DNA of 64,000 nt from an uncultured delta proteobacterium (GTDB lineage Bacteria > Desulfobacterota > Desulfobaccia > Desulfobaccales > 0-14-0-80-60-11), in NCBI GenBank assembly GCA_963709285.1, contig CAVPVR010000002.1:65491-129490 (forward strand), given 5' to 3'. Below are positions 29,550-57,626 of this stretch, piece after piece. Within the stretch, counting starts at the first letter, position 1; each line of letters begins with the position of its first letter. Under the pieces are notes generated by a model. It made no database searches. It was not told where the DNA came from and saw only the letters and a program-made list of their open reading frames with translations. The position numbers were made by a program, and so were the translations under genes.

Positions 29550-29608
29550 TAAAACAGCTTTATGGAATCCCGGTTGTATTTTAACAACGAATAATAAACC
29601 CTAATGTA

Positions 29609-30826: not shown

Positions 30827-30832
30827 CCCTAA

Positions 30833-34323: not shown

Positions 34324-34356
34324 GGGGCCTGACCCGGTTTTGCCGAGTTATTTCCC

Positions 34357-35211
34357 ATGAAAACGTTGGTCCACAAGCGTGAAACCAGAAGCGCCATTGA
34401 ATTGACCCTCCGGATGTACCAGGAGCTGGTAGAGCTGCGCCTGGACAAAACGGCCTGCCTCAAGTGCGAGGTCTGCTCCCTGGTCTGCCCTCGGGGGGCG
34501 GTGGCCGTCACGCCTGCTGACGAGGGCCTGGATATCACCATTGATCCCCGCGTCTGCGTGCTCTGCGAAATTTGCGCCCACTTTTGCCCTACAGGAGCGG
34601 TGAGCTTGAGGCTCAACGGCGTCCCCAAGACTATTTTATTCGACCATCTGGGTCTGGCGGCCTTTTTGGACAAGATCAGGATGGACAAGGAAAGGTGCAC
34701 CGAGCCCTGCCCCCAGGATGAAAAAGGGCAGGAGCACTGGTGCCGGCAGCAGCTGAAGCTGGTGGGAGGCCTGCTCACGGAGTGCCCCAAACACTGCCAC
34801 AAGTGCCTGACTGTGTGCCCCCGTCAGGCCATTGTCCTGGACCCGGAGGGCCTGCACACCATGCCCGAGCCCGACCTGTGCCTGCGCTGCACCCAATGTC
34901 TCTCGGTGTGTGAACAGGAAGCCCTGGCGGTCAACCCCCAGTTCACTGGCGACCTTGACATTGACGACAGCAAGTGCCCGCCGGACTGTATGCTGTGCAT
35001 CGAAGCCTGTCCCGTTAAGGCCATCGTGCGGGAAGGGGAGCGGGTCTACCGGAAGTTAGAAACTTGCAGCTACTGTGGGGTGTGCTACAACATTTGTGAT
35101 TACGAAGCCGTTAGCCTAACCCGGCGGCAGGTGGTGGCCCTCAAGGGGGAATTTTCCCAAGCCTGGGAAGAGGCGGTGAACCGGCTCCTCTCCCGGGAAA
35201 TGGTTCGATAA
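34357..35211 (+). CDS. Polyferredoxin (six 4Fe-4S-type motifs; MvhB/FwdF-like)
   Basis: CLKCEVCSLVCP, CVLCEICAHFCP, CHKCLTVCP, CLRCTQCLSVC, CMLCIEACP, CSYCGVCYNIC. Confidence 0.8.
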   Translation: MKTLVHKRETRSAIELTLRMYQELVELRLDKTACLKCEVCSLVCPRGAVAVTPADEGLDITIDPRVCVLCEICAHFCPTGAVSLRLNGVPKTILFDHLGLAAFLDKIRMDKERCTEPCPQDEKGQEHWCRQQLKLVGGLLTECPKHCHKCLTVCPRQAIVLDPEGLHTMPEPDLCLRCTQCLSVCEQEALAVNPQFTGDLDIDDSKCPPDCMLCIEACPVKAIVREGERVYRKLETCSYCGVCYNICDYEAVSLTRRQVVALKGEFSQAWEEAVNRLLSREMVR

Positions 35212-35235
35212 GTTGCGTTAAGCAAAAAGGCGTTT

Positions 35236-37599
35236 GTGGAACCTGAACTTCGCATCGGCTTATATATCTGTCACTGCGGCCTCAATATCGCCGGGGTCAT
35301 CAGTCCGGAGGCCCTGTCGGTTCAGGGGCAGGGGCTCCCTGAGGTGGCGGTCAGTCGCCATCATTTGTACACCTGCTCCGAAGCCGGCCAAGCCGAGATT
35401 CTGAAAGACATCAAGCACTTTAAGCTTGATCGGGTGGTTATTGCCGCCTGTTCACCCAAGCTTCATGAAGTCACCTTCCGCCGGCTGCTGTCGGAAGCGG
35501 GGCTGAATCCCTACCTGGTGGAAATGGTGAACATCCGGGAGCACTGCGCCTGGGTGCACGCCGGGGAGCCGGAGGCGGCCCAGGAAAAGGCGTTGGAGCT
35601 CATCCGCATGGGGCTAGCCAAGGCGTGTCTGGCGGTCCCCTTGCAAGACCGCCAGGTGCCCATGACCAGGCATGCCCTGGTTATTGGCGGAGGCCCAGCG
35701 GGACTGCGAGCCGCCCTCGATATTGCCCATGCCGGCTACCCCGTAACCCTGGTGGAACGGGAGCCCATCCTAGGGGGCATGGCCAACCGGCTGCATCGCA
35801 CCTTTCCCCGGGGGGAAAGCGCCCTGGCCCTGATCAATCCCCTCATGGCTGCGGTGGCCCTGCATCCCGGCATCCAGGTGCTCACCCAGAGCGAGGTCAC
35901 CGAGGTGAGCGGGCATTTGGGGGAGTTTGCCGTCACGGTGCGGGAGACCCTGCCCCTGGTGGGGGAGGCCTGCGACCGCTGTGGGCACTGTGCTGAGGTC
36001 TGTCCGGTGGTGGTTCCCGATACCGTGGCCGCAGGTCTTGGCACCCGGACTGCCATCTATCTGCCGGCCCCCCATGCTTTTCCCGGCCGCTATGTGGTGG
36101 ATCTGGAGCACTGCGACCGCTGCGGCGAGTGTATAGCTGCCTGTCCCCAGGAGGCCATCAGCCTGGAGGAAGGGGAACGAGAGCATCACCTCACCGTGGG
36201 GAGCATCGTGGTGGCCACGGGCTTCACTCTCTTTGATACGGCGGGGAGCCGCTATGAGAACTGGGCTGACCATCCGGGAGTTGTCACCACGGTGGCCCTG
36301 GAGCGCCTTCTGGCGGGGGCAGGACCCACCCAGGGAAAGGTAAGCCTTGCCGATATTCCAGAAGAGGTGCGGGATGTGGCTTTTCTGCTGTGCGTGGGCT
36401 CCCGGGAGGAGGAGGGCAACCGTTACTGCTCCCGGGTGTGCTGCCCCACGGCCTTGAAGCAGGCCCTGGAGCTGAAAAAACGCCTCCCGGAGGCCCGCAT
36501 TCGTATCTATTACCGGGACATCCGCACCAACAAAAAAGACTGGGAGGCCCTTTACACCGAGGCCCGGGAAGCGGGGGTGCTGTTTTTGCGGGGGCGGGTG
36601 GAGGAAGTAAAAGCCGCCCAAGATGGGGGCCTGCTCATTCGTGCCTTTAACGAGACCTTTCAGGTTCCCACCGAAGACCGGGTGGACCTGGCGGTCCTGG
36701 CCGTGGGCATGGTCCCCGGGAACGGCGCCGCTCTCCGGGAGGTGTTGAAGCTGCCGGTGGGACCGGACGGCTTTTTCATGGAGGCCCACCCCAAGCTCAA
36801 GCCCCTGGAGACGGTGCTGGACGGCATTTTTCTGGCCGGGGCCTGTCAGGGTCCCAAGGACCTGGCCGAATCCTTCACCCAAGGAAGCGGCGCGGCCGCC
36901 AAGGTTCTGGCCCTCTTTGCCCACGAGACCATCACCCTGGACGGCCTGGTGGCCCAGGTGGACCCGGAGGTCTGTGTGGGCTGCGGGGAATGCGCGGCAG
37001 CCTGTCCGTTTCAGGCCATGGAGATGGTGGGGGAGGAAGAAAAGCAGCAGGCCCAGGTAGTTACTGCAGCCTGCAAGGGCTGTGGGGTCTGCGCCGGCGC
37101 CTGTCCTACGGGGGCGGTCATCCCCGCGGGGTTTACGGACGAGATGATCCTGGCTCAGATCGACGAGGCCTTGGCGGAGGCTCCGGAACAGAAAATTTTG
37201 GCCTTTTGCTGCAACTGGTGCTCTTATGCCGGGGCGGACTTCGCCGGGGTGTCGCGGCTGGCCTATCCCCCCCAAGTGCGCATTATCCGAACCATGTGCT
37301 CTGGCAGGATTCACCCCAAGTTTATCCTCCATGCGTTTGAGCGGGGCGCCGGCCAGGTTTTGATCTCCGGTTGCCACCCTCCGGGGGAATGCCATTATAT
37401 TTCTGGAAATCTTAGGGCTCAGGAGCGGGTGGAAAAGCTCCGGCCCAAACTTGCCAAAAAAGGCATCGACCCTTCCCGCCTGCGGCTGGCGTGGGTTTCA
37501 GCCACGGAAGGGAGGGCATTTCAACGGGTCATTGAAGAAATGGCCGCGGCCCTGGAGCCTGAAGAGACGGTCAAACAAGCGAGCGGTCAGGGGAAATGA
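35236..37599 (+). CDS. hdrA: HdrA-like flavoprotein fused to a C-terminal MvhD-like domain
   Basis: LYICHCGLNIAG N-terminal cluster, VIGGGPAGLRAAL FAD motif, CVGSRE, ferredoxin motifs, and a C-terminal ILAFCCNWCSYAGAD...ISGCHPPGECHY (MvhD signature). GTG start. Confidence 0.85.
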   Translation: MEPELRIGLYICHCGLNIAGVISPEALSVQGQGLPEVAVSRHHLYTCSEAGQAEILKDIKHFKLDRVVIAACSPKLHEVTFRRLLSEAGLNPYLVEMVNIREHCAWVHAGEPEAAQEKALELIRMGLAKACLAVPLQDRQVPMTRHALVIGGGPAGLRAALDIAHAGYPVTLVEREPILGGMANRLHRTFPRGESALALINPLMAAVALHPGIQVLTQSEVTEVSGHLGEFAVTVRETLPLVGEACDRCGHCAEVCPVVVPDTVAAGLGTRTAIYLPAPHAFPGRYVVDLEHCDRCGECIAACPQEAISLEEGEREHHLTVGSIVVATGFTLFDTAGSRYENWADHPGVVTTVALERLLAGAGPTQGKVSLADIPEEVRDVAFLLCVGSREEEGNRYCSRVCCPTALKQALELKKRLPEARIRIYYRDIRTNKKDWEALYTEAREAGVLFLRGRVEEVKAAQDGGLLIRAFNETFQVPTEDRVDLAVLAVGMVPGNGAALREVLKLPVGPDGFFMEAHPKLKPLETVLDGIFLAGACQGPKDLAESFTQGSGAAAKVLALFAHETITLDGLVAQVDPEVCVGCGECAAACPFQAMEMVGEEEKQQAQVVTAACKGCGVCAGACPTGAVIPAGFTDEMILAQIDEALAEAPEQKILAFCCNWCSYAGADFAGVSRLAYPPQVRIIRTMCSGRIHPKFILHAFERGAGQVLISGCHPPGECHYISGNLRAQERVEKLRPKLAKKGIDPSRLRLAWVSATEGRAFQRVIEEMAAALEPEETVKQASGQGK

Positions 37600-39218
37600 T
37601 AACCAAGACCCAAGTTCTCTTGTGCGCCTGCCCGGACCTCAAGGTGGAGGTCCAGAACTTGGCCCAACGCCTCTCCCAGGCCGGGCTGAGGGTCGAAGTA
37701 TCCCCGCCTCTCTGCACCCCCGCGGGTTTGGAGGAATGGGGGCCACGCCTGACGGCCGAACCCCGGGAGTGGCTGGTGGCCGCGTGCGGACCGGCACAGC
37801 ATCACGGCCTTTTTCAACGTCTGGCCGGGGATGAACCTCTGGCCATGGTGGATCTCCTAGCCGCAGACGATCTGGAAAGCGCTGTGGCAGCCGTCCTCCT
37901 GGCCCAAAAGGAGGAAATTCGCCTGGTTTCCGCGGGCGCACCCCACAGCCGGGAGGTGCTGGTGGTGGGGGGCGGGGTGGGGGGCTGTCAGGCCGCCCTG
38001 GACCTGGCCAATGCCGGTTTCAAGGTACATCTGGTGGAATCCTCCCTCTCCATCGGTGGCACCATGGCCCAGTTGGACAAGACCTTTCCCACGCTGGACT
38101 GCTCCATCTGCATCCTGGGACCCAAGCTGGTGGAAGCCGCGGCCCACCCCTTGATTGAGCTCCTCACCTTTGCGGAAATCACCGGCATTTCCGGCCAGGC
38201 CGGGCGATTTACGGTGGATGTGACCCTGAAGCCCCGCTATGTGGACATGAGCCGGTGTGTGGGCTGCGGCAGTTGCGTCCAGGTCTGCCCGGTCATTGTT
38301 CCCAGTCGCTGGAACCTGGGGCTCAAGTCCCGCAAGTGCATCCGCATCATTTTTGCGCAGGCGGTGCCCCTTATGGCCACTATCGAAAAAGAATACTGCA
38401 TCGACTGCCAGATGTGCCTTGAGGCCTGTGAACACGGGGCCATTCACCCTTTGTCCCGCCCGGAGGAACGGCGCCTCGAGGTGGGGGCGGTGGTTCTGGC
38501 TACCGGGGCCCGGCCCTTTGACCCGGCCATTCAGAGTGAATACAGTTATGGCCGTCTCCCCGGGGTCCTCACCAACCTGGAGTTCGAGCGCCTGGTGTGC
38601 GCCACCGGTCCTACTCAAGGACATCTCCTGACCCCCGCCGGGCAACCGGTGAAGCGTCTGGCCTTCATCCAGTGTGTGGGCTCCCGGGACCGGCGCTTCC
38701 TGCCCTACTGCTCGGGCTACTGCTGCACTGCGGCCATCAAGCAGGCCATGCTGACCCTGGAGCATGAACCCGACGCCGAGGTCACCATCTTTTTCAACGA
38801 CATCCGCACGTCGGGGAAGGGCTTCGAGGAACTCTATTTGCGGGCCCAAGCCGCGGGAGTGCGCTTTACTAAAGGTCTGCCGGGGCGTATCGAGGCGGGG
38901 GAGGCTGGCAGCCTCATAATCATTTATGAAGATCAGCAAGGCGGCCAGCGGGGCCGTCTGCCCGTGGACCTGGCGGTCCTGTCCGTAGGCCTGACCGCAC
39001 CCCGGGAGGGACTCCCCTTCACAGAGATCGGGCCGGTGCGGGACAACCTGGGATTTTATGACAGCCGGCACCCGATCCTTCATCCCCTGGAGTCCACGGT
39101 GCCGGGAGTCTTTCTGGCCGGCACCGCCCAGGGGCCCCGGGATATTTCTGAAACGGTGTGCACCGGCAGCGGGGTTGCGGCCCGGATCATCAACCTGCTC
39201 AATTCTCTGCCCCAGTAG
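37596..39218 (+). CDS. hdrA: HdrA-like flavoprotein (third paralog, with a distinct N-terminal extension)
   Basis: VVGGGVGGCQAAL, DKTFPTLDCSICIL, CVGCGSCVQVCP and IQCVGSRD motifs. Its start overlaps the upstream stop (ATGA). Confidence 0.8.
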   Translation: MITKTQVLLCACPDLKVEVQNLAQRLSQAGLRVEVSPPLCTPAGLEEWGPRLTAEPREWLVAACGPAQHHGLFQRLAGDEPLAMVDLLAADDLESAVAAVLLAQKEEIRLVSAGAPHSREVLVVGGGVGGCQAALDLANAGFKVHLVESSLSIGGTMAQLDKTFPTLDCSICILGPKLVEAAAHPLIELLTFAEITGISGQAGRFTVDVTLKPRYVDMSRCVGCGSCVQVCPVIVPSRWNLGLKSRKCIRIIFAQAVPLMATIEKEYCIDCQMCLEACEHGAIHPLSRPEERRLEVGAVVLATGARPFDPAIQSEYSYGRLPGVLTNLEFERLVCATGPTQGHLLTPAGQPVKRLAFIQCVGSRDRRFLPYCSGYCCTAAIKQAMLTLEHEPDAEVTIFFNDIRTSGKGFEELYLRAQAAGVRFTKGLPGRIEAGEAGSLIIIYEDQQGGQRGRLPVDLAVLSVGLTAPREGLPFTEIGPVRDNLGFYDSRHPILHPLESTVPGVFLAGTAQGPRDISETVCTGSGVAARIINLLNSLPQ

Positions 39219-39254
39219 AGGGCCTTGCAGACCTTGTGAAATATAGAGATAATA

Positions 39255-39283
39255 ACTTTGAGGACTTTGACAAAAGACTTTGG
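39255..39283 (+). promoter_or_regulatory. Three direct ACTTTG(A/G) repeats upstream of the Ubl-like gene
   Basis: AACTTTGAGGACTTTGACAAAAGACTTTGG read directly. The half-site is the same as in the 25907 palindrome. Function unknown. Confidence 0.25.
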
Positions 39284-39297
39284 AAAGGCGAACTAGC

Positions 39298-39672
39298 ATG
39301 TCGGATATTCAGATAAAACCGGAAGAACAACCGAAAAAATTACAAAAACCCTTGCCCCTGGTCCTGGAGATCATTCCCGGGCAGGCCGGGGAGGGGCTCG
39401 TGGTGGTAATGGAGCCAGGGAGCTACGAGGGCAGCACCCTGAGGGAGCTCTGTGATCAGGCTTTGAGCCGCCCCGACTTCAGCATCGAGGAGCGCCAGAT
39501 TTTAGAGGACATCCAGCGGCAGCTTCAGGGTGGCAAGCTCCTTTGCCAGGGCCGGGACCTCGACGGACCCGCCCAGGTCTTCGGAACCGTTGAGGAGACG
39601 GAAGCCGGGGAGGCTTATCTTTATGTGCCTGTCCGGGCCATCAAGCCTCAGGAGGGGGGCCTCTTCCCTTAA
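39298..39672 (+). CDS. Ubiquitin-like (beta-grasp) protein candidate with C-terminal GG followed by LFP
   Basis: 124 aa from the ATG at 39298, with a GGAAAGG RBS 8 nt upstream. It shows a beta/alpha alternation compatible with a beta-grasp fold, ends ...YLYVPVRAIKPQEGG-LFP, and sits in an operon with E2-like, JAB and E1 genes. Confidence 0.5.
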   Translation: MSDIQIKPEEQPKKLQKPLPLVLEIIPGQAGEGLVVVMEPGSYEGSTLRELCDQALSRPDFSIEERQILEDIQRQLQGGKLLCQGRDLDGPAQVFGTVEETEAGEAYLYVPVRAIKPQEGGLFP

Positions 39673-39675
39673 GGA

Positions 39676-40878
39676 ATGGGAACGGGAGCGGGGATGTGGA
39701 GGTGTTTTGAAGCCGACCTGGAAATCCTGGTGCACCGGGGCCACCTGTACCTTCCCCTGGTTTTAGATCCAGAGATCAACCAGGAGATTCAGGCCCCGAT
39801 TTCCCCAAGTTATTCGTGGGATCAATCGCCCGGCGGGCTCAGCCGTTCACCGGTGCCTACGGTCCTGGCTGTCCTGGATAGATGGTTCGTCCAGGCGGTG
39901 AGCGCTTCCTCCCTGGTTGACAACTACGCCCAGCTTTTTCCCCAAGACCACGAAGACCGCCGGCGGACTCTCCGTGAACAATACTCTCTGACCGCGGACC
40001 TCTTTGGGGTGGCCCTGGACCCCCACCTGGTCGCCATCGTTTTTCACATTTTACCCCATTTTCTCAGGCGGGATGGATTTCAGAGACGGCGGCGCTTACA
40101 GGAGGGGGAGGTCCTGGATTTCATCCGGGAGCGAGTCCAGGTGCCCCACTACTTCGACCAACAAGCGCGGAGTTTCCTGGATGTCAATCCTCTGAAGGAG
40201 GCCCTCCGGCGCCTGGAAACCGTTCATCTTGAGCCCAAACCACCTCCAGAGGGATTGGTGCCGGCAGCCGATCTGGGGGCCTGGTGGGAGGAGGTCCTAA
40301 CAGCCCAACTTCTGGCCGAGGAGCGCAACCGCCTCTTCCAGGAGATCGAGGAACGGGAGCACTGGGCCACGGCTCAGGAAAGTCGTCTGGCGGTTCTGCT
40401 CTATTTAGCTCAAAAAGGGTCCCTGGAACTGGACGGCTTCGGGTTCTCCCGGATGAGGCGGGGCCAGGATTACCGGGTTTACAAGCGCACCGGGCCCTAT
40501 GCCCTCCAGGACTTTTATGGCCATTTGTACCTCTTCCCGGATTGCCGGGTGGCGGTCACCACTTTGGGGCGCCTGCGGCCCGTGGTGGTGGATCACTATA
40601 AGCACCCGTTCCTGAGAAGGTACGCTTCTGGCCAGGAAATCTGCATAGGTCCCGAAAGCAGTAATCTTTCTTTTTCGGCAAAAAACGCCATCCAGGTCCT
40701 GGAGGAAGGGATCAACGCGCTCTTGTACAGCTACGACGGCCGGCACCGCGCCGGCTACCACAGACTGTTTGTGCTGCCGGGGATGATGCGACTGGTGGAC
40801 TTCGAAGACATTCGCATCCCGAAGGACCACCCCCTCATCGTCTCAGGGAAAGTGGAAGTGAAGAACCGGGCCACCTGA
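39676..40878 (+). CDS. E2/UBC-like protein candidate with a large N-terminal extension
   Basis: The C-terminal region YLFPDCRVAVTTLGRLRPVVVDHYKHPFLRRYASGQEICIGPES...AIQVLEEGINALLY mirrors the UBC layout (FP..., HPN-like HPF, G-x-x-I-C-[LI], following helix). The candidate catalytic Cys323 codon is at 40642-40644. Confidence 0.45.
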   Translation: MGTGAGMWRCFEADLEILVHRGHLYLPLVLDPEINQEIQAPISPSYSWDQSPGGLSRSPVPTVLAVLDRWFVQAVSASSLVDNYAQLFPQDHEDRRRTLREQYSLTADLFGVALDPHLVAIVFHILPHFLRRDGFQRRRRLQEGEVLDFIRERVQVPHYFDQQARSFLDVNPLKEALRRLETVHLEPKPPPEGLVPAADLGAWWEEVLTAQLLAEERNRLFQEIEEREHWATAQESRLAVLLYLAQKGSLELDGFGFSRMRRGQDYRVYKRTGPYALQDFYGHLYLFPDCRVAVTTLGRLRPVVVDHYKHPFLRRYASGQEICIGPESSNLSFSAKNAIQVLEEGINALLYSYDGRHRAGYHRLFVLPGMMRLVDFEDIRIPKDHPLIVSGKVEVKNRAT

Positions 40879-40879
40879 C

Positions 40880-41287
40880 ATGGACCTTAAGGACTCTTTT
40901 CGCCGGGACCGGCTTCGGGGGAAGGAGAAGGAGCCCTGGGCCCCCTCCCTGTTCTCTCAGGTCGGAGGGCTGGTGCGGCGTCATCGACTGGGAGAGGCAT
41001 TTTGTCAGCTTCTCGGGCAGATGACTACGGCAAGTGCGGAAACCTTAGCGCAGACCCACCGATCTGCTCCCAAGGCCCCTTTCGAGCCACCCCTGTTTTT
41101 TTTGGCCACCGCAGAGGATTATCAGGTGATTCAGAAAATTCTCTCGGGCCTAAACAACCCCTACCTGGCTTGGGCCTGCAGTCCGGAGGAAATTCTTCTG
41201 TCGCCAACCCTGTGGAGCCGGCGTCCCGGCCTTGACCCAGAGGTGCTGGCCACCCACCACTTTGCGGCGTTGCTTTTACATGATTAA
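40880..41287 (+). CDS. Hypothetical protein of the Ubl operon
   Basis: 135-aa ORF starting 1 nt after the upstream stop. No family recognised. Confidence 0.5.
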
Positions 41288-41289
41288 AT

Positions 41290-41340
41290 TTGAGAGGAGG
41301 GCTGGGGGAGCGCGGCTCCCCCACTCTCCCCCCAAAAAAC
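41290..41340. repeat. G/C-tract hairpin repeat copy
   Basis: GAGAGGAGGGCTGGGGGAGCGCGGCTCCCCCACTCTCCCCCC is palindromic and lies between the 135-aa gene and the clpX-like gene. Confidence 0.5.
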
Positions 41341-41364
41341 CTGTTCACATCACAAGGAGTACTC

Positions 41365-42468
41365 ATGCCGAATGGCATAACTGATGAGAAGCGGCGGCGC
41401 CTCGAAGAAAAGATGGAGCAGTTTCGGGAACGTCAGATAGACGAGGCGGTGCAGCACATCCTTGAATTCGACAAGACTCCTACGACCCTGAAGGCCGAAG
41501 TGGACCGGTTCGTCATCGGCCAGGAGAAGGGGAAAAAGATTATCGCCACGGCCATCGCGTTCCATTATAAGCGGCTGGGTGCCGCGTTGAAGCGCACCTT
41601 GGGAGAACACAACGGCAGCATCGAGAGCGCCCTCAAGAGCACCCGTACCCCCAAGGCCAACATCCTCATGGTGGGTCCCACCGGGTGCGGCAAGACCTAC
41701 ACCAGCGAGACCGCCTCGGAGCTGGTGGGGGTGCCCTTCGTGGTAGAGGACATGACCAAGTTCAGCGAGGTGGGCTACGTGGGCATGAATGTCAGCGACA
41801 TCCTGGTGGACCTCCTCATCTCCGGAGACGGCAACCCGAATGTGGCCCAGATGGGTATCGTCTACCTGGACGAAGTTGACAAGATTGCCGCCGAGACCTC
41901 CACCGTCCGGGATGTTTCGGGGAAGGGAGTCCAGAAGGGTCTTCTCAAGCTGGTGGAGGGGGTGGACAACACCCTGGAGATCGGCAAGGAGCGTTTCTCT
42001 CTTTCCACCAAGCACGTGCTGTTTATTGCCGGGGGGGCTTACGACAGCCTGGAAGGCATCGTCAGGAAGCGCCTGGCCCGCCTGAATGTGACGGGCGACT
42101 GGCGGGACCACCTGGCCACCGAGGACCTGGTTTCCTTCGGTATGGAGCGCCAGCTTGTGGGCCGCTTCCCGGTCCGGGTGGTGTATGATCGCCTCACCAC
42201 CCAGGAACTCCAGGACATCCTGACCAAGAGCGCCGACAGTCCCCTCCGGGCTTACGTCCAGGACCTGGAAAGCTGGGGCATCGACCTGAAATACACCGAG
42301 GAGGCCCTGGGGGAGATCGCCCGCCGGGCCAAGCGGGAGGGCACCGGGGCCCGGGGACTGGTGGGCATCCTCCACCGGGTGCTGCTCGAGGACATGTTCC
42401 GCCTACCCGGCAACTACACGGGAGAGCTCATGATGGACGGAGCCTACATCCGGGAGAAACTGGGATGA
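41365..42468 (+). CDS. ClpX-like AAA+ unfoldase lacking the Zn-ribbon, RKH and IGF (ClpP-docking) elements
   Basis: VIGQEKGKK, Walker A GPTGCGKT, pore loop GYVG, Walker [30 protein letters not shown], and sensor region GARGL. There is no N-terminal C4 domain and no GIGF motif. A CAAGGAG RBS precedes the ATG at 41365. Confidence 0.85.
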
Positions 42469-43262
42469 GGTTCAAGGCCCTCAAGGACCTGAGCCGGACG
42501 GCGCCCCAGGAGATTGTGCTGGCCTCTCTCCCGGAGCAGGTCCTGATGACGGACTTTGCCAAAGCCAAGGCCTTTGCGGTGAGTGAACTGGTGCGCCGGG
42601 TGCATGGGGAGGCGTTCGAGTGGTACGGCTTCACCCTGGCGGAGCGGGCCCGGCCGGAGGTCATCGTGGATGTGGGGCTTCCCGAAAACGACGAGAACCA
42701 GGAGACTTACACCAGCATCAGCCCGGAACGTATTGCAGCTTACCAGGAAACCCTACCGGCCGGGCAGATAATCAACGGCTGGCTCCACTCCCACGGCGCT
42801 CTGGAGTACCGTCAGTTCTCCCCGGTGGACGACCTCAACCAGGCGACGGTGCTGGACTACGTCACTTCCCTGCTCAAGATGCCCGTGGCCAAAAAGGAGG
42901 TGGTGATCCGGGATTTGACCTTCCTGTTGTTGGATGAGGAGGAGGCCGCAATCCAGGCCGCAGGCAGCGTCACCCTCCTCACCGATGTGCCGGTGGGCCG
43001 GGCCAAACTCCTGGAGACCATTTATGGGGGCTTCTGCTTCGGCATGGTCATCGGTGACAAAGGCTGGACCAAACAGGAGATCCATTACAAAACCCGGGGC
43101 GTCCTCACCGGCGAGACCCTGGTGAGCAAACGGGAAGCCGACCTGACCCTGGTGGCAACCGGGAAAAACCTCACGACCTCGGACCTGGAGGCCCTGGAAC
43201 TGGAGGTCAAGGAACGTATCCGACCCATTACCTATACCCCGGAAAAGCTGGAGCGGGGGTAG
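42465..43262 (+). CDS. JAB/MPN+ (JAMM) metalloprotease-like protein
   Basis: Upstream Glu (GEAFEWYGF) and [18 protein letters not shown] (H-x-H-x8-S-x2-D, one residue longer than the canonical x7), encoded at 42786-42830. Its start overlaps the clpX-like stop (ATGA). Confidence 0.7.
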
Positions 43263-43432
43263 GGGGAAAGGCAAATTAAAGTATCACTGGAATGTTGGGG
43301 TTGATTTGGTAATTGCATTTTTTTCTTTTCCCATATCTAAAAAGAATTTTTATATCTAATTTATTCTTTTAGATTTTGTTTAGATAGTTAAAATATACTA
43401 GAAGTTACTAAAAAGATGATGGTACTAACTTC

Positions 43433-44431
43433 ATGATTGAGTCTTGCGTATGGCGCCGCCTTTGTCGTCCCGAGGTTGGGATTCCGAACTCGATAAGTGA
43501 TCTGATTGCCCGGGAAGAATGGCTGAAAGGGGATTTTTTAACTTCCGTACGTATGGGGCCAACACTATTTATAGCGAGTGATTATGGTGGAGCGCACAAG
43601 GGTGCTGTATATGAGACCCTCTCGTTTCTCATGGCCGACTTGACATATGTTTGGTTATTTGACGAATTGCGTACAAAGCTACGCAATGAAGCGGTTCTAA
43701 AAAGTCGCCGTATGGCATACAAATCTTTAGGCGACCGTCGGAGACAAGAAGCACTTGTGCCGTTTCTTCGATCGGGTAACACGATCCCGGGACTTCTAAT
43801 GAATATTGTATTAGATAAAAACGCCTCCCAATTACTTTCAGAATCCTATCAACCTAAATTTGCCTTTGGCGAACTTAGCCATTGGTGTAAAGGGTCCTTT
43901 GAAAAACTCACGCGCGTTGGACAACTGGGAGCGATGCTTGTTGAGGGAATGTGCGCTCCAGGTCAGAATGTATTATGGATTTCTGACGAAGATGAGATAG
44001 CGCCAAACAGAGAGAAGTTGTTTGAGGCAACTAACGTTTTAGGCCATTACCTGAATCATTTCTGTTCTAATCAGATGGGGCACATGAGATTTGGAACTAC
44101 AAACGTGGACAATGGCAACCTCCGAATTGAAGATCTTGTCGCGCTCGTTGATCTTGCAGCTGGATGCCTCTCGGAGATCTTTACGCAAACGATGAAACTG
44201 TTTGGAAGCCCTGCAAGCAAAATCCTTATACCTGGGACGCACTCGTCATCTAAGAAAGCAAGAATTATTGCAAATTGGATGGCCCAGGGTAATCATCCTC
44301 TGAAGAAGCTAATCGTGTTGGTTGAAGCTCAAAATAATTCTTATATCACGAAAGTCGTAAACTTTTATCCAGAAGGCACAACAAACATTTTCGACTGGGT
44401 AGCCGATTTCGAGGAGTTGCTCAGAAATTGA
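43433..44431 (+). CDS. Hypothetical protein on a low-GC insertion
   Basis: 332-aa ORF, visibly AT-richer than its neighbours and preceded by a 170-bp AT-rich spacer. No family recognised. Confidence 0.6.
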   Translation: MIESCVWRRLCRPEVGIPNSISDLIAREEWLKGDFLTSVRMGPTLFIASDYGGAHKGAVYETLSFLMADLTYVWLFDELRTKLRNEAVLKSRRMAYKSLGDRRRQEALVPFLRSGNTIPGLLMNIVLDKNASQLLSESYQPKFAFGELSHWCKGSFEKLTRVGQLGAMLVEGMCAPGQNVLWISDEDEIAPNREKLFEATNVLGHYLNHFCSNQMGHMRFGTTNVDNGNLRIEDLVALVDLAAGCLSEIFTQTMKLFGSPASKILIPGTHSSSKKARIIANWMAQGNHPLKKLIVLVEAQNNSYITKVVNFYPEGTTNIFDWVADFEELLRN

Positions 44432-44497
44432 CTACTTCTAACTCTTTGAATTGTTTGACGTTTTAATATGTTAGCATCTTAGCGTTAGAATGTGAGT

Positions 44498-44728
44498 ATG
44501 AAGAATTCACCGAAACGAGCCACCATCTACTTCGAATCCGACCTGCACCGGGCCTTACGGGTGAAGGCGGCGGAGGTGGGCCAGTCGATGTCCGAACTGG
44601 TCAATCAGGCGGTGAAGCTTTCCTTGGCCGAGGACGCTAAGGATATAGCGGCCTTCGAGGAGCGCCAGCACGAACCCAGCCTGCCCTTTGAGGACGTCCT
44701 GAAAGACCTCAAGATAGGGAAGGGCTGA
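44498..44728 (+). CDS. Ribbon-helix-helix (CopG/antitoxin-like) protein, orphan
   Basis: KRATIYFESDLHRALRVKAAEVGQSMSELVNQAV is a typical RHH beta-strand plus two helices. No adjacent toxin ORF is seen. Confidence 0.7.
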   Translation: MKNSPKRATIYFESDLHRALRVKAAEVGQSMSELVNQAVKLSLAEDAKDIAAFEERQHEPSLPFEDVLKDLKIGKG

Positions 44729-44734
44729 GAGCAA

Positions 44735-44820
44735 GTCCCCCTTTGACAAAGGGGGATTTAGGGGGATTTTCGAGGGGTCAGGAAAAATCCCCTGACCCCC
44801 CTTTATTAAAGGGGGGGATT
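44735..44820. repeat. Family A nested-palindrome element, copy 2 (inverted)
   Basis: Its reverse complement aligns with 45058-45140 and 29466-29549 (…CCCCCTAAATCCCCCTTTgtcAAAGGGGGAC). Confidence 0.8.
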
Positions 44821-44852
44821 TTAAGCATAGGATATGCTAAGGAGCATTAAGG

Positions 44853-45041
44853 ATGGCAGAGCATTGGTGTAAAACCTGCTTTTTCAGAGGCCAATATGAC
44901 AAAAACCCCCAGTCATTGTTGGGGAGATTGTGGAAATGGCATGCCAACTGGTGCCCGGGCTGGAAATCCTACATGAGATCCATCCCGGATGAGGAACGCC
45001 TGGAATTAGCCGAAAAATATGATTTACCCAAATTCAGGTGA
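44853..45041 (+). CDS. Hypothetical small CxxC protein
   Basis: 62 aa reading MAEHWCKTCFFRG...WCPGW, with an AAGGAG RBS upstream. It is bracketed by inverted family A repeats. Confidence 0.45.
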   Translation: MAEHWCKTCFFRGQYDKNPQSLLGRLWKWHANWCPGWKSYMRSIPDEERLELAEKYDLPKFR

Positions 45042-45057
45042 AGCGACTGCCTATTTA

Positions 45058-45140
45058 CCCCCCTTTCTTAAAGGGGGGGTAGGGGGGATTATGTAAGGCT
45101 TTGATAATCCACCTAAATCCCCCTTTAGAAAAGGGGGACT
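45058..45140. repeat. Family A nested-palindrome element, copy 3
   Basis: Near-identical to 29466-29549 in the same orientation. Confidence 0.8.
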
Positions 45141-45218
45141 TTCAAAGTTCAATCCTGAAGTGACTCAGATAATGAGCCTGGTAATTCATGGAACACTACA
45201 TTAGCTGACTAAACCATT

Positions 45219-46721
45219 GTGACCTTGCCTGAAAACACCTATTTATCCCGGGATGAAGCAACTCCGGACGAGCGCCTGGACCGGCAGGTGCGCATTCCGG
45301 GGTGGAACCAGGAGGCGTTGGCCCAGGCCCGGGTGGGGGTGGTGGGAGACGACCCCTGGCTCACTGGCCTGGTGGTGACTTCGGCTGCGGCCCTGGGAAT
45401 CAACCGGCTGACGGTGGTGGCCCCGGACCTGGACCCCCGCTTGCTCTCGGCGACCCGGGGGCTTAATCCGGAGTTCAACCTTGCCTGGTTCCCAGGCTTT
45501 TTCAGCCATTCCCTCCTGGAGGACCTGCTCCGGGAATGCACCGTCCTGATTGACCTGGGCCACCACGGCCTGGCCACCAAGCTCCTCCTCAATCTGGCCC
45601 AAAGGAAAGGTCTCCCCCTGGTGCGGGCGTCTGACTTTGAGGAGGATGGGGTGGCGGGCCTCAGGCTCTTCACCTATCAGCCAGGCCGGGAATGGCGGGA
45701 ACTCCTGGAAGTGCTTCCTCAAGCCCAACTTCCTTCCCGGTGTCAGGGCGACCCGGTGCTGGCTCTGGTCACGGTGGGGCTGGTTCTCGAGGAAACCAAA
45801 AAGCTCCTCCTGGGGGAGGCGGTAACACCGGAGGTGATCTCATACTCTCGGGCCAGCTTAAAGACATTTAATTTGAGGGAGAGGGCTAGGGGCCGTGAGC
45901 CCCTACCCCCTCCCTCAAACTCCCTCCCCCAACCCCTTAAGGGGGAGAGAAATGCTGTAAAGTCGGGGCAAGCTGCCCCGACTTTACAAGCACATTGCGG
46001 GATGGGAGGGGGGCTTGATGGGAAGAAAGGGACCGGTAGCATGGGCTTCCAGCCCGTGGCACCCTGGCCTTACCCTCATGAGCTCATTTTTCTGGATTCC
46101 CCCATCGCGGTGGTGGGCGCCGGGGCCCTGGGGAACTTTGTGGCGTTGGGGTTGGCCGCTCTGGGCTTCACCCGCCTCACCTTTATCGATCCGGACCCGG
46201 TGGAGGTCACCAATCTGAACCGTCAGGTTCTCTTCTGGGACGCCGTGGGACAGCCCAAGGCCGAGGCGTTAGCAGAAAAAATCAAGGAGTGGTTCGGGGT
46301 GGCGGTCAGGGCTGACACGACATACATCACCCGGGAGACTGACTTGCGCGAGTTTGCCGTGGTGTTCGACTGCACGGACAATTTTGCCAGCCGCATTATC
46401 CTGAGCGAAAAGTGCCGGGAATATGGCCAAATCCTCATCAGCGGCGGCACCGGGGTGGAGGCCGGACAGGTAGTGGTCTTCGACCCCGCGCAAGGCGGCC
46501 CCACCCCCGCAGAGCTTCTGGGGCTTTATGACATCGTGGGACAGCGTGACATCGACGTCAAAGAGCGGGAACGGGCCTCCTGCGTCTATGCCCCTGAAGC
46601 CGCCATAATCATGACCAACCAGATCGTCGGGGGCCTTATGGTGGACACCCTGAGAAGACTGCTTACGGGAGAGCCGGCACCCAACCTCTTCTACGACGCC
46701 CGGAGTGAAAGGATGATTTAG
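45219..46721 (+). CDS. E1-like (ThiF/MoeB/UBA family) activating enzyme with a degenerate N-terminal and an intact C-terminal adenylation domain
   Basis: The C-terminal half, IAVVGAGALGNFVALGLAALGFTRLTFIDPDPVEVTNLNRQVLF...FDCTDNFASR, is a classic ThiF fold. The N-terminal half has a Rossmann-like layout but a degenerate loop (VGVVGDDPWLTG). GTG start. Confidence 0.8.
   Translation: MTLPENTYLSRDEATPDERLDRQVRIPGWNQEALAQARVGVVGDDPWLTGLVVTSAAALGINRLTVVAPDLDPRLLSATRGLNPEFNLAWFPGFFSHSLLEDLLRECTVLIDLGHHGLATKLLLNLAQRKGLPLVRASDFEEDGVAGLRLFTYQPGREWRELLEVLPQAQLPSRCQGDPVLALVTVGLVLEETKKLLLGEAVTPEVISYSRASLKTFNLRERARGREPLPPPSNSLPQPLKGERNAVKSGQAAPTLQAHCGMGGGLDGKKGTGSMGFQPVAPWPYPHELIFLDSPIAVVGAGALGNFVALGLAALGFTRLTFIDPDPVEVTNLNRQVLFWDAVGQPKAEALAEKIKEWFGVAVRADTTYITRETDLREFAVVFDCTDNFASRIILSEKCREYGQILISGGTGVEAGQVVVFDPAQGGPTPAELLGLYDIVGQRDIDVKERERASCVYAPEAAIIMTNQIVGGLMVDTLRRLLTGEPAPNLFYDARSERMI
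45873..46062. repeat. G/C-tract hairpin repeat modules inserted in frame inside the E1 gene
   Basis: TTGAGGGAGAGGGCTAGGGGCCGTGAGCCCCTACCCCCTCCCTCAAACTCCCTCCCCCAACCCCTTAA matches the intergenic element at 57548-57616. It also contains the hairpin AAAGTCGGGGCAagcTGCCCCGACTTT and a GGCTTCCAGCCCGTGGCAC motif. Confidence 0.7.
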
Positions 46722-46935
46722 GGGGGAAATATGCGGGAGAGGGGGGAAAGGGTCACAGACCCTTTCCCCCCCACTCCCAATCCCTCACATTAAGCGGGAG
46801 CAGAGGCTTCCAGCCTGTGTAGGAACAGGTAGGATGCCTGTTCTCCCGGTCAAGGGGAAGTGGGAGGAGGGTGTGGGAAGAGGGCATGTAAGGGCGGGTT
46901 TAAAACCCGCCCCTACGTCCCCGGCCTCCCCTCCA
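46719..46935. repeat. Cluster of repeat modules (G/C-tract hairpins plus the GGCTTCCAGCCTGTG/GAACAGG...CCTGTTC module plus the GGGCGGGTTTAAAACCCGCCC hairpin)
   Basis: Read directly. Positions 46795-46865 are the inverted counterpart of 55050-55125. Confidence 0.7.
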
Positions 46936-46944
46936 ACTCATGCT

Positions 46945-47745
46945 ATGCTGACTAATTTCCGAGAACCGCGCTTGTTGGGGCGCACCGGTCTCAAGGCGGG
47001 GCGGCTGGGGGTGGCTTCGAGTTTTGGGGCCCCGGCCGCGGCCTATGAGGAGGCCTTTGACGCGGGCTGCAATTACTTTTACTGGGGGTCTCTGCGCCGG
47101 GCCGGGATGCGGGAAGCTATTCAGAACCTCTGCGGCCGGGGCCAGCGGGAGGGCTTGATTATCGTGGTCCAGAGTTACTCCCGCCTGCCCTCCCTTCTGG
47201 AGGAGTCCCTGCGCCGGGCCTTGAGGCGGCTGGGGTTGGATGCCGCCGATGTCCTGCTTCTGGGGTATTATTCCCGGAGACCGCACCGGCGGCTGCTGGA
47301 GCGAGCCTTAAAAATGCGGGAGCAAGGAATGTGCCGTTTTCTCGGTCTCTCCGGGCACCACCGGCCTTTATTCCCCGAGCTGGCGCGAGAGGGCCTCTTT
47401 GACCTTTTCCACGTCCGCTATAACGCCGCTCACCAGGGGGCGGAAACCGAAGTTTTTTCACCCCTCTTAGAAATTCCCCACTCTCTGCGCCCCGGCATAG
47501 TCACCTTCACCGCCACCCGTTGGGGGCAGCTCCTGAAGGCCAAAAACATGCCCCCGGGGGAGTCGCCGCCTCCGGCCGCGGATCTGTACCGCTTCGCCCT
47601 GAGCCATCCGGCGGTGGACGTTTGTCTCTCTGGCCCCGCCAGTCAGACGCAGATGAGGGAGGCCCTGAGGGCCTTGGACCTGGGGCCCTTATCAGAGATG
47701 GAATTGGCCCGCCTCCGGCGTCTGGGCGATCATGTTCACGGTTAG
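46945..47745 (+). CDS. Aldo/keto reductase family oxidoreductase
   Basis: LGRTGLKAGRLGVASSFG...NYFYWG... pattern. The start was set at the ATG at 46945 because the longer track ORF runs through the repeat cluster. Confidence 0.75.
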   Translation: MLTNFREPRLLGRTGLKAGRLGVASSFGAPAAAYEEAFDAGCNYFYWGSLRRAGMREAIQNLCGRGQREGLIIVVQSYSRLPSLLEESLRRALRRLGLDAADVLLLGYYSRRPHRRLLERALKMREQGMCRFLGLSGHHRPLFPELAREGLFDLFHVRYNAAHQGAETEVFSPLLEIPHSLRPGIVTFTATRWGQLLKAKNMPPGESPPPAADLYRFALSHPAVDVCLSGPASQTQMREALRALDLGPLSEMELARLRRLGDHVHG

Positions 47746-54973: not shown

Positions 54974-54990
54974 AGACGGGTAAATGTCAT

Positions 54991-55200
54991 TCGAGTGGAG
55001 GGCCGGGGGACCACGGGTCCTTCGGCCCTCCACTCGAGCTTCCCTCCCAACCCCCCTTGACCGGGAGAACAGGCATCCTGCCTGTTCTTGCACAGGCTGG
55101 AAACTTGTGCTCCCGCTTAATATAGGGGGTTGGGGGAGTGGGCCTGGGCGAGGGGGCAGGGGTCCGCGACCTCTGGCCCCCTCTCCCAAAATCTATTAGC
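54991..55200. repeat. Cluster of repeat modules, including a 15-bp-stem hairpin and an inverted copy of the 46795-46865 module
   Basis: TCGAGTGGAGGGCCG (54991-55005) pairs with CGGCCCTCCACTCGA (55023-55037). Also present are GAGAACAGGCATCCTGCCTGTTCT, CACAGGCTGGAAAC, and TAGGGGGTTGGGGGAG...CTGGCCCCCTC. Confidence 0.75.
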
Positions 55201-55810: not shown

Positions 55811-56281
55811 ATGCTCCAGGTCGTTATTCTCATGGTGGGGAAAACCCGGGAAGCTTTCGTTCAGGAGGGCTTGGACTTCTATACCAAACGCCTGCGGCCC
55901 TTTTTCCGGCTGACGGTGAAAAGTGTGCGGGAGGAGAAGGAAGGAAAGAAACTTGCAGCAGAAATAATAAAAATCAAGGAGGGAGAACGCCTGCGGGCCC
56001 AGATACCCCCCCGAGCCTATGCCGTGGCCCTGGACCCTCGGGGGAAAGAATGCACCACCGAAGAATTTGCCTTCTGGTTGGCCCAACGGGAGGAAGACGG
56101 TCGGCCCCTAACCTTTCTTATCGGGGGGCACCTTGGTCTGGACGCAGCCACCCTGGCCGCGGCCCACGATCAGTTAGCCCTCTCTCGCCTGACCCTCACC
56201 CACGAACTGTCCCGCTTGGTGCTCCTGGAACAACTCTACCGGGCCAAAACCATCCTCATCGGCCACCCGTATCACGTGTAA
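55811..56281 (+). CDS. rlmH: 23S rRNA (pseudouridine1915-N3)-methyltransferase
   Basis: 156 aa, LIGGHLGLD...LSLSRLTLTHEL...EQLYRA...HPYH signature. Confidence 0.9.
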   Translation: MLQVVILMVGKTREAFVQEGLDFYTKRLRPFFRLTVKSVREEKEGKKLAAEIIKIKEGERLRAQIPPRAYAVALDPRGKECTTEEFAFWLAQREEDGRPLTFLIGGHLGLDAATLAAAHDQLALSRLTLTHELSRLVLLEQLYRAKTILIGHPYHV

Positions 56282-56285
56282 AGGC

Positions 56286-56391
56286 AGTGGGGGGAGGGCC
56301 AGGGACCTGAGGTCCCTGCCCTCCCCCCACACCCCCCTCCCAACCCGCAGAGGGGGCTGGCAAGACGGGGCCTAAGCCCCGTCTTGCCAGC
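56286..56391. repeat. Two stacked hairpin repeats after rlmH (probable terminator function)
   Basis: GGGGAGGGCCAGGGACC-tga-GGTCCCTGCCCTCCCC, and a perfect 16-bp stem GCTGGCAAGACGGGGC-ctaa-GCCCCGTCTTGCCAGC (56356-56391). Confidence 0.65.
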
Positions 56392-56422
56392 CATTTCTCT
56401 ATCCCTTATACCAAGATGCAAT

Positions 56423-57037
56423 CTAACAAGTAATATTAAGGTAGGGGAAGTTTGTCATCGAACGAAGTTTTTTCGGGTCTTTGGCAAGATTGTTCAGACC
56501 CTGACAGAGGTTGTCCTCTACCTCATCAAGATCCCTTAACGCCTTGTTGGCAAAATTCTTCTCCCGTAACTCCTCCCAAATATGTTCGGAAGGATTCAAC
56601 TCTGGGCTGCGCGGAGGCAACTTGATCAGCCTAATATTTTCGGGTACCTCCAATCTCCGGGAGATATGCCACCCGGCCTGATCTACCAGCATGAGGATAA
56701 AATAATCCGGAAAATCCTCCGCCACCTGCCTCAAGAAGATATTCATCATCTCCGTATTGGCCCAAGGCAAGATGAGGGAGGTCATTCTCCCCAATGCCGG
56801 GCACACCGCTGTGAAGACATAGAGATAAGTTCTAATAACCTGCCGGGGCGCTTGCGGCCTCGTCCCCAGAGGCGACCAGGCGCGCCTGACATCACTGATG
56901 CGGCCAAAGCGTCCCTCGTCTTGAGCAAAGAGTAACACCGGACGATGATCTTCCGGGGCTCTGTCGGCCAGTTTTTCAGCCATTATTTCGGGAAGTTTTT
57001 TTAAAAGCCTCCTGCTCCTCTTTATCGGCATCGACAT
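56423..57037 (-). CDS. IS630 transposase, DDE catalytic part (ORF B, +1 frame relative to ORF A)
   Basis: LLFAQDEGRFG..., MLVDQAGWH..., LPPRSPELNPSEHIWEELRE (DDE_3 signature). Confidence 0.85.
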   Translation of the reverse strand: MSMPIKRSRRLLKKLPEIMAEKLADRAPEDHRPVLLFAQDEGRFGRISDVRRAWSPLGTRPQAPRQVIRTYLYVFTAVCPALGRMTSLILPWANTEMMNIFLRQVAEDFPDYFILMLVDQAGWHISRRLEVPENIRLIKLPPRSPELNPSEHIWEELREKNFANKALRDLDEVEDNLCQGLNNLAKDPKKLRSMTNFPYLNITC

Positions 57038-57482
57038 GGAACGGCCGGGGCACCACTTTCCGCCAACCCTGCCGTTTAAGTAACCGATAGACGGTGGTCT
57101 TGTGGACTGTTCGACCGATCCGTCTTTCCAAAGCCTCCTTGATTTCTGCTACGGTAACAATCTGGCCGGTAAGCGCCATCTGCCTGAATGATTCTATAAA
57201 GGCAGTCTCTTCGTCCCAGCTTAAATAGGAGCGGCGCCGTCCACCCTTCCCGGGTCCCTCCACCGCTTCCGGCCCCCAGCGATTATATCTGGAAATCAGA
57301 TTATGAACCGATTGCTCCGCAAGTCCGGTATGCAAAGCAATTTCCCCGGCAGAGCGAGGATCAACCAGGGCATTCCAAATAACCAGCCATTTTTGCACTC
57401 GCCAAAACCCCACCGTTGCTTTAATTTTTGCCTGAATTTCTTCCTTGGAAAGGTGGGGGATACTCTTGGTAACTTTTCCCAT
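56976..57482 (-). CDS. IS630 transposase, N-terminal HTH part (ORF A)
   Basis: 168 aa with helix-turn-helix/winged-helix regions. It ends inside an A7 tract (T7 on the plus strand, 56996-57002). Confidence 0.8.
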   Translation of the reverse strand: MGKVTKSIPHLSKEEIQAKIKATVGFWRVQKWLVIWNALVDPRSAGEIALHTGLAEQSVHNLISRYNRWGPEAVEGPGKGGRRRSYLSWDEETAFIESFRQMALTGQIVTVAEIKEALERRIGRTVHKTTVYRLLKRQGWRKVVPRPFHVDADKEEQEAFKKTSRNNG

Positions 57483-57567
57483 GACTGCCCCCTTGATAAT
57501 TTTTGGAGCAGTCTATCATATTACTCATTAGAACGCAACTTAGTATTAGGGGGTTGGGGGAGGGAGC

Positions 57568-57614
57568 TTGAGGGAGGGGGCCAGGGGTCTGTGACCCCTG
57601 GCCCCCTCCCTCAA
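57568..57614. repeat. Perfect 21-bp-stem G/C-tract hairpin (reference copy of the family)
   Basis: TTGAGGGAGGGGGCCAGGGGT-ctgtg-ACCCCTGGCCCCCTCCCTCAA, lying between the IS630 end and the Nfu-like gene stop. Confidence 0.8.
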
Positions 57615-57626
57615 ACCAATATTTCA

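Follow-up and report, generated by a model that had tools for sequence, protein, structure and literature searches.

Introduction

Rickettsia palindromic elements (RPEs) are non-autonomous palindromic repeats of ~100–250 bp that occur between genes and in frame within unrelated housekeeping genes; in the latter they add translated peptide segments to the protein at sites whose structure permits it (PMC10969869). Here we describe a repeat of comparable behavior in a 64,000-nucleotide stretch of DNA (hereafter the window) from an uncultured delta proteobacterium of the Desulfobaccales (GenBank assembly GCA_963709285.1, contig CAVPVR010000002.1, forward-strand positions 65,491–129,490). A gene for an E1-like protein in this window carries one complete copy of a hairpin repeat in frame in the linker between its two domains, and we consider it very probable that this repeat is a non-autonomous mobile element and the copy a tolerated passenger. 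Like RPEs, the element is palindromic, and its copies lie in intergenic DNA as well as in frame within functional protein genes, with read-through predicted here from the open frame. It differs from RPEs in its unrelated sequence family and its host, free-living Desulfobaccales-type bacteria, and in its scarcity within genes, as nearly half of RPEs are in genes versus ~1 of ~118 sampled loci here (outside E1). It is also a nested mosaic of several hairpin families, with one linker hit or remodeled repeatedly.

Repetitive extragenic palindromic (REP) sequences, bacterial interspersed mosaic elements (BIMEs) and REP doublets forming hairpins (REPINs) are the nearest likeness in build. The hairpins described here are likewise GC-rich, extragenic, multi-copy and placed right after gene ends, and the element has two inverted hairpin-bearing arms that make a larger palindrome, the arrangement set out for REPINs in PMC3116915 and PMC3333891. 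Its copies persist at orthologous sites, as in REPs, and insertion sequences (ISs) insert into REPs (PMC1525189), as an IS630-type element does into one copy in the window. REPs and REPINs are extragenic by definition, however, and a full copy translated within an enzyme is unusual. [quoted passage not shown] The element resembles MITEs in being small and mostly intergenic, with terminal inverted symmetry and no coding capacity. We therefore regard it as REPIN/BIME/MITE-like in build and RPE-like in behavior. The phenomenon is already known from Rickettsia, so this case is a well-documented new example but no new principle; it shows REP/REPIN-like intergenic repeats carried in frame in an essential-looking enzyme fold beyond obligate intracellular bacteria.

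A complete repeat copy in the linker

The entire inter-domain linker of the E1-like gene is a single full-length copy of the composite element, made up in order of a 5' tail, modules A, B, D, B' and E, and a 3' tail. Its extent and modules are as follows.

45858–46100 (+), full-length composite palindromic repeat, in frame, 243 nt or 81 codons, aa 214–294 (nhmmer, collinear alignment and pLDDT, the per-residue confidence of the structural model)
45873–45918 (+), hairpin A, stem of ~21 bp (fold)
45919–45940 (+), module B, ACTCCCTCCCCCAACCCCTTAA, which pairs with B' (fold)
45956–45988 (+), hairpin D, a 15-bp perfect stem with loop AGC, AAAGTCGGGGCA-agc-TGCCCCGACTTT (fold); a homologous hairpin, GGCTGGAAAGTCGGGGCC..., has the same position in genomic copies
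45996–46022 (+), module B', TGCGGGATGGGAGGGGGGCTTGATGGG, inverted partner of B (fold and alignment); matches 56332–56349
46020–46078 (+), hairpin E, arms 46020–46034 and 46059–46078, its loop filled by hairpin C (alignment to genomic copies)
46035–46058 (+), nested REP-type hairpin C, GGTAGCATGGGCTTCCAGCCCGTG, in the loop of E, encoding SMGFQPV (copy count)

A profile made solely from intergenic copies of other genomes matched the linker at 45862–46093 (nhmmer, model positions 6–219, 134 bits, E = 1.6e-39), making it the best-scoring copy in the window, and the linker is collinear with more than 20 genomic copies. An earlier note on this DNA had marked ~190 bp at 45873–46062 as not E1-like and described them as a loose mosaic of repeat modules. 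The foreign segment is real, but collinear alignment places its bounds at 45858 and 46100, and the whole of it is a single composite element with its modules in order instead of a mosaic. The close match it reported to 57548–57616 was recovered by blastn (45872–45940 vs 57546–57615, 83%, E = 9e-12), which also aligned 45872–45940 to 55126–55190 (75%, E = 1e-3), both in inverted orientation, and the perfect hairpin it described is confirmed as the 15-bp stem of D. Its GGCTTCCAGCC motif, which belongs to hairpin C, has 4 real copies in the window vs 0.15 expected by chance. The insert has 41 11-mers in common with the rest of the window, a number within the background (mean 24, maximum 60) that does not discriminate, and local alignment and profile searches were therefore needed.

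Hairpin C is the sole extra piece of the E1 copy relative to the composite, and the arms of hairpin E around it are degenerate compared with the consensus GGGAGGGCAGGGACC...GGTCCCTGGCCCTCCCCCC. A small C-like hairpin is also nested in the loop of hairpin A at two loci from other genomes (L081 and L051). The RNA fold of the segment has a predicted energy of −114.9 kcal/mol (z = −6.15), with none of 200 shuffles as stable, and consists in order of hairpin A, the B/B' stem enclosing hairpin D, and hairpin C. No Rfam family reached its gathering score for this segment, where the sub-threshold matches were generic hairpins.

Host gene and predicted product

The frame through the repeat stays open and encodes the peptide that the earlier note quoted: the ORF at 45219–46721 is uninterrupted over 500 aa and has the following parts.

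45219–46721 (+), E1-like ORF, 500 aa, with a degenerate ThiF-like N domain, a repeat-derived linker and an active ThiF C domain (ORF list)
45219–45857 (+), N-terminal domain, aa 1–213, inactive-adenylation-domain-like, conserved in orthologues
46101–46721 (+), C-terminal active ThiF/adenylation domain, aa 295–500, with GAGALG and NLNRQ motifs (Pfam)

In the orthologue alignment the glycine loop of the N domain is replaced by GDDPWLTG, without GxGxxG, where the C domain has GAGALG. Pfam ThiF was found at aa 293–488 (E = 8.6e-39), and sequence matches of the protein in the PDB were MoeB, ThiF, Uba4 and E1s. An AlphaFold2 (AF2) model built from 38 orthologues (pTM 0.80) packs the two domains together, both with pLDDT ~90 (N domain: aa 30–212), and has pLDDT <50 and no secondary structure at aa 220–283. 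The best Foldseek matches in the PDB were full-length UBA7, UBA1 and UBA6, with E values down to 1e-16 and query TM-scores of 0.49–0.57 (UBA7 and UBA1, 0.51–0.57). Given the model confidence in both domains, the structural matches to E1s and the missing glycine loop of the N domain, a single-chain E1-like protein with one inactive and one active adenylation domain, the canonical E1 pseudo-dimer layout, is a fair description of the predicted product. Activation of a ubiquitin-like protein by this enzyme is putative.

We compared the window gene with three syntenic orthologues (L001, L002 and L003), using the linker only where it could be aligned. The ratio of nonsynonymous to synonymous substitution rates (dN/dS) was 0.21–0.24 in the N domain, 0.13–0.18 in the C domain and 0.55–0.70 in the linker, which indicates that both flanking domains are under purifying selection and that the gene is not broken. 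Every column invariant across the 38 aligned orthologues is kept in the window protein, GAGALG and NLNRQ of the C domain among them. Because the length of the copy, 243 nt, is divisible by three and no stop codon occurs in the frame of the gene, translation should run through it. Read-through would add an 81-residue Pro/Gly-rich disordered loop at the surface-exposed junction, and judging from the model the insert is most likely read as such a floppy loop. With both domains intact and under purifying selection, we interpret the insert as a tolerated passenger, not a new functional module. The earlier note had offered a mobile repeat tolerated in the linker as one possibility, and the nhmmer match, the orthologue comparison below and the disordered insert of the AF2 model bear it out.

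The same note also suggested that the gene might be split or inactivated, in which case its halves would be decaying or separately expressed, e.g. by a restart at Met275 (MGFQP). There is an ATG at 46041 in the nested hairpin, and gene calls on short contigs yield C-terminal fragments of 239 aa that fall into the protein cluster of the E1-like gene, probably through assembly breaks at the repeat. Yet this Met derives from hairpin C, which is absent from the other orthologue linkers examined, and MGFQP therefore has no support as a conserved start. No terminator-like site was found on the coding (+) strand within the insert, AF2 packs the domains together, and a single uninterrupted ORF joins two halves that each show dN/dS of 0.13–0.24 against the three orthologues and retain all invariant columns. 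On these grounds a split or inactivated gene is highly improbable.

Linkers of orthologous genes

Outgroup proteins of 413–445 aa have a 9-aa linker without the repeat, while linkers in the Desulfobaccales clade measure 11–105 aa and are made of the composite, its deleted versions or other dispersed repeats. The pattern that, by the earlier note, would have spoken against its reading, a segment conserved at the protein level without nucleotide similarity to the intergenic repeats, was not seen. Four orthologues retain recognizable parts of the composite.

L003 linker, composite nearly full length
L002 linker, composite with hairpin D deleted
L123 linker, B' and E only, after other repeats, with an internal compensated frame shift
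L122 linker, 5' arm of hairpin A only

The nearest orthologue, L001, shares 88–91% aa identity with the window protein in the domains, and its flanks match up to ...TCTCGGGCCAGC and from CCCATCGCGGTGGTGGG on. Its linker is unrelated and combines a CCCCTCACCCC...GGGGGAGAGGG hairpin with a CAGAAAAC tandem, both of which recur elsewhere in the sampled genomes; nhmmer found no trace of the composite in L001.

In the simplest history, the element would have entered the junction early in the Desulfobaccales lineage, and nested insertions and differential deletions would have come later, with recurrent independent insertion at that spot as a possible alternative. After the early insertion, the junction would have become a long-lived dumping ground for repeats. 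Later nested insertions would have brought in the PHP/GEGE hairpin, the CAGAAAAC tandem and the REP hairpins, and deletions between inverted or direct repeat arms would have trimmed the junction to the linkers of 11–105 aa seen in orthologues. Such a history suggests that one permissive linker can gain, nest and lose elements of this kind over long times, and it leaves a natural linker-length series (9–105 aa) for a single-chain bacterial E1-like enzyme.

The outgroup state also bears on another origin of the linker, the capture of a former intergenic region with its resident repeat by fusion of two subunit genes. The element normally abuts gene ends, and heterodimeric E1s encoded by two separate genes exist. 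However, the orthologues of the outgroup are single chains already, and their 9-aa linker lacks the repeat, so the fusion must be older than the insertion, and a second copy within an N-domain loop of the L125 orthologue is inexplicable by fusion. We give this trapped spacer very little credence. A repeat-mediated chimera is a further concern, as the window is probably from a metagenome-assembled genome (MAG) and repeats are classic misassembly points, but both flanks belong to one gene and are in frame. Independent JGI, ENA and Logan assemblies (L002, L003, L122 and L123) have the element at that junction, and the identical 500-aa protein is present on two contigs; an assembly artefact can be practically discounted.

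We also consider it unlikely that the linker was exapted, with its extra length, disorder or mRNA structure serving domain spacing or mobility, or pausing the ribosome so that the N domain folds first. It is true that all linkers of the Desulfobaccales clade are longer than the 9-aa outgroup state and that an unusually stable fold (z = −6.15) is kept within a coding region. The top structural matches, moreover, are canonical eukaryotic E1s, whose adenylation domains likewise have additional domains inserted into them. Against this, the sequence, the length (11–105 aa) and even the repeat family of the linker vary between close orthologues, its dN/dS is 0.55–0.70 compared with 0.13–0.24 in the domains, L123 tolerates a compensated frame shift inside it, and the insert is predicted to be disordered. 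The hairpins are explained by the biology of the element itself, because intergenic copies share them. Exaptation for a specific function, which the earlier note had raised, is thus not supported, and a generic role in length or flexibility may remain. Less likely again is that the junction is a preferred landing pad for hairpins whose translated repeats, or −115 kcal/mol mRNA structure, are used by the cell. If that were so, the repeats would be a tunable spacer or pause site for assembly of the pseudo-dimeric E1, or raw material for new insert domains like those in the adenylation domains of canonical eukaryotic E1s, and linker remodeling among orthologues would be adaptive, not neutral.

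Distribution of the repeat family

The composite element is ~185–250 bp long with the fixed order A–B–D–B'–E. Alignment of genomic copies with their flanks defined its 5' tail as CTCTGAAAAAGTCATC, hairpin A as TTGAGGGAGGGGGCCAGGGGTC...GACCCCTGCCCCCTCCCTCAA and B' as GCGGGTTGGGAGGGGGGTGTGGG. In a scan of one genome per species, the 17-mer CTCCCTCCCCCAACCCC of module B seeded at least ~50 copies in Desulfobaccales-type MAGs. Among the matches listed, most true ones were in MAGs labeled Desulfobaccales, Desulfobaccia, Syntrophobacterales or 'delta proteobacterium', several of which had at least 4–7 each. Hairpin A is 94% paired across 30 distinct copies, with compensatory changes at 2 pairs, and the E1 copy carries a C-G to U-A variant that is shared with L026 and L038.

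The earlier note proposed counting the repeat genome-wide and asking how often it lies in ORFs. Our count covers 947 kb of sampled DNA, in which nhmmer found 128 distinct element loci, 104 of them stop-free in at least one frame; of 16 intergenic copies that were scored, 6 are open in the frame used in E1. Leaving out the E1 orthologues that were fetched on purpose, ~1 of ~118 sampled loci is in a bona fide gene. This is carA of an unrelated MAG, where the CPSase_sm_chain and GATase domains are separated by an in-frame composite (L032 3400–3556). The second in-frame copy of L125 is a full composite (2619–2830, E = 1e-31) in a surface loop of the E1 N domain, with nested C-type hairpins, in an orthologue of 588 aa (P0033). 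The modules are otherwise only intergenic within the window, as the earlier note had it, but these two loci show that this does not hold elsewhere. In-frame palindromic elements are therefore present in the E1 linker (window, L002, L003, L122 and L123), the N-domain loop of L125 and carA of L032. In-gene copies are rare, and all three gene sites found are a linker or a loop. Long ORFs across copies in L013, L015, L018, L024, L040, L084 and L111 had Arg/Pro/Gly-rich translations; they were judged spurious and not counted as genes.

At the protein level, a word-indexed search with the consensus peptide returned 3 short hypothetical ORFs only, and an exhaustive phmmer search of the 81-aa insert against 1.84 billion representatives returned 3 weak matches, one of them a false positive. 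With almost no protein-level matches, the encoded peptide is not a recurring protein module, and such searches cannot count insertions. Viral contigs gave one weak partial match only, with no sign of phage carriage. For annotation, these results warn that Pro/Gly-rich 'linkers' and N-terminal extensions of neighboring genes may be translated repeat DNA.

Candidate mobilization of the element

The hairpins are GC-rich imperfect palindromes with many copies that are normally extragenic, as in REPs, and the A+B and B'+E arms are inverted partners, with the B/B' stem around hairpin D, as in a REPIN doublet. Features of MITEs are also present: the element spans 185–250 bp and has inverted arms with tails CTCTGAAAAAGT.../...TTTCGCAGAG and no long conserved ORF.

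Genes for REP-associated tyrosine transposases (RAYTs) were found at a syntenic position in two related genomes, at L026 1873–2439 (−) and L060 694–1233 (−). A first search with an E. coli sequence served as a lead only, and its matches were then confirmed by NCBIfam (NF047646, 97 and 103 bits vs a cut-off of 80). Both genes are bracketed on both sides by inverted GGTGGCACAGGTG...CACCTGTGC REP hairpins, and at both the upstream REP is read into the N-terminal extension of the ORF. The flanking hairpins have a GGTRGCA head and the same build as module C (GGTAGCATGGGC...) and resemble C only, not A or E. Module C of the E1 copy reads GGTAGCATGGGC, with the GTAG head present, while hairpins A and E start TTGAGGGAGG and GGGAGGGCAGG. 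These large hairpins thus differ from REPs and REPINs in lacking the GTAG head and in having no RAYT linked to them. No RAYT gene was found within the 64-kb window.

Based on the shared head and build, a RAYT-type single-strand hairpin mechanism is the likeliest one that we can suggest for module C, and would account for its landing in hairpin loops. By extension, we envisage that the element may be mobilized by a Y1/RAYT-type enzyme acting on single-stranded hairpins. A previously uncharacterized composite repeat family of Desulfobaccales-type genomes is now defined, and RAYT is a candidate partner of the REP module nested in it.

Several observations weigh against our reading of a mobile passenger that entered the linker early. 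The flanks of several copies, inspected by eye, show no target-site duplication of consistent length or sequence, though individual copies have short direct repeats next to them (L003, GCCGGCCCA/GCCGGGCCA; L125, ATATCTT). Nor was a parent autonomous IS with matching ends found, and in this the element differs from MITEs; the want of a consistent duplication may be a further difference. No mobilizing enzyme is linked to the A/E composite, for which Y1/RAYT-type mobilization is a conjecture. The neighbor-joining tree used for polarity carries no support values. Every linker of the Desulfobaccales clade exceeds the 9 aa of the outgroup (minimum 11; crown group 14), and some of this extra length could be selected. 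Finally, the A+B parts of the window and L002 differ by only ~13% (counted by eye), while the flanking dS is ~0.7. This fits DNA-level constraint or conversion, or independent later insertions, and a single ancient insertion is not proven.

Other repeats in the window

Four further element loci occur in the window, all outside called genes; one is split by an IS and one is a solo fragment. They are listed with the inserted IS and a solo C-type hairpin.

46729–46940 (+), second, diverged composite with nested hairpins, in the spacer directly after the E1 stop codon (nhmmer E = 8e-9)
54981–55197 (−), full-length composite, intergenic, upstream of a thioesterase gene (nhmmer E = 4.8e-24)
57543–57626 (−), 5' half (A+B) of the IS-split composite (nhmmer model positions 5–88, E = 8e-21; junction sequence)
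56279–56408 (−), 3' half (D, B', E) of the IS-split composite, beginning at the stop codon of a SPOUT methyltransferase (nhmmer model positions 83–213, E = 1e-30)
56409–57542 (−), IS630-type element (HTH_33 ORF 56976–57482, DDE_3 ORF 56423–57037)
23856–23911 (+), solo hairpin-E fragment between the long ORFs 22860–23726 (+) and 23918–24979 (−) (nhmmer E = 5e-6)
22760–22780 (no strand assigned), solo C-type REP hairpin GCACAGGCTTCCAGCCTGTGC between the long ORFs 22170–22727 and 22860–23726

The copy in the spacer downstream of E1 is at the orthologous position in L002, L122, L123 and L124, and copies can therefore persist over divergences with dS up to ~1. The listed aldo/keto-reductase ORF at 46834–47745 begins inside this copy: its first 37 codons (46834–46944) are read from the composite, a repeat-derived false N-terminal extension. 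Its start is probably the ATG at ~46945, because the L001 orthologue has 266 aa.

The IS630-type element, the only IS in the window, was inserted at a TA in the B–D spacer of a composite copy, and the repeats therefore act as IS landing sites. Its ends, TACTAAGTTGCGTTCTA and TACCAAGATGCAATCTA, are unrelated to the composite. For this reason, and as it is itself inserted into a copy, we rejected it as the parent of the composite.

A second dispersed repeat family is built on the palindrome CCCCCTTTnnnAAAGGGGG and occurs in pairs, in the window at 29466–29550, 44737–44819 and 45059–45141. It is also found at L001 7842–7920 and at L002 7810–7890 and 10600–10680, and it lies just upstream of the E1-like gene in several orthologous loci.

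Gene neighborhood

The E1-like gene belongs to a conserved neighborhood that comprises, in order, Hdr-like genes, a small ORF, a gene of 394–400 aa, one of 135 aa, an AAA+ gene and a JAB-like gene; after a variable stretch come the E1-like gene itself and then genes for an aldo/keto reductase, PGI, a histidine kinase and a sigma-54 regulator. The conserved cluster at 39280–43262 (+), which the E1-like gene closes, includes a 130-aa ORF ending ...QEGGLFP, a possible ubiquitin-like precursor; ORFs of 400 aa and 135 aa without a Pfam match; a ClpB-D2/AAA_2-type ATPase (41290–42468); and a JAB-like protein (42465–43262) with an HSH...S..D motif and a weak match to Pfam Prok-JAB (E = 0.23). Based on this gene content, the cluster next to the Hdr-like genes may be an uncharacterized bacterial ubiquitin-like conjugation system.

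In L125 the JAB-like gene directly adjoins the E1-like gene, and in the window ~1.95 kb of variable cargo lies between them (43263–45218). The cargo contains a 332-aa ORF without a family (43433–44431), a ribbon-helix-helix (RHH) antitoxin-like ORF (44492–44728) without the ParE toxin that adjoins it in L001, L002 and L003, and a 62-aa ORF (44853–45041) bracketed by 84-nt inverted repeats at 44733–44816 and 45058–45141.

Upstream, three paralogous genes for HdrA-like FAD/Fe-S oxidoreductases (30800–39300) share internal DNA repeats (families D1, D4, D8 and D12), and their predicted products fit a metabolism of the sulfate-reducer or syntroph type. A c-di-GMP-I riboswitch aptamer is located at 4357–4442 (+) (Rfam RF01051, 68 bits vs a gathering score of 35).

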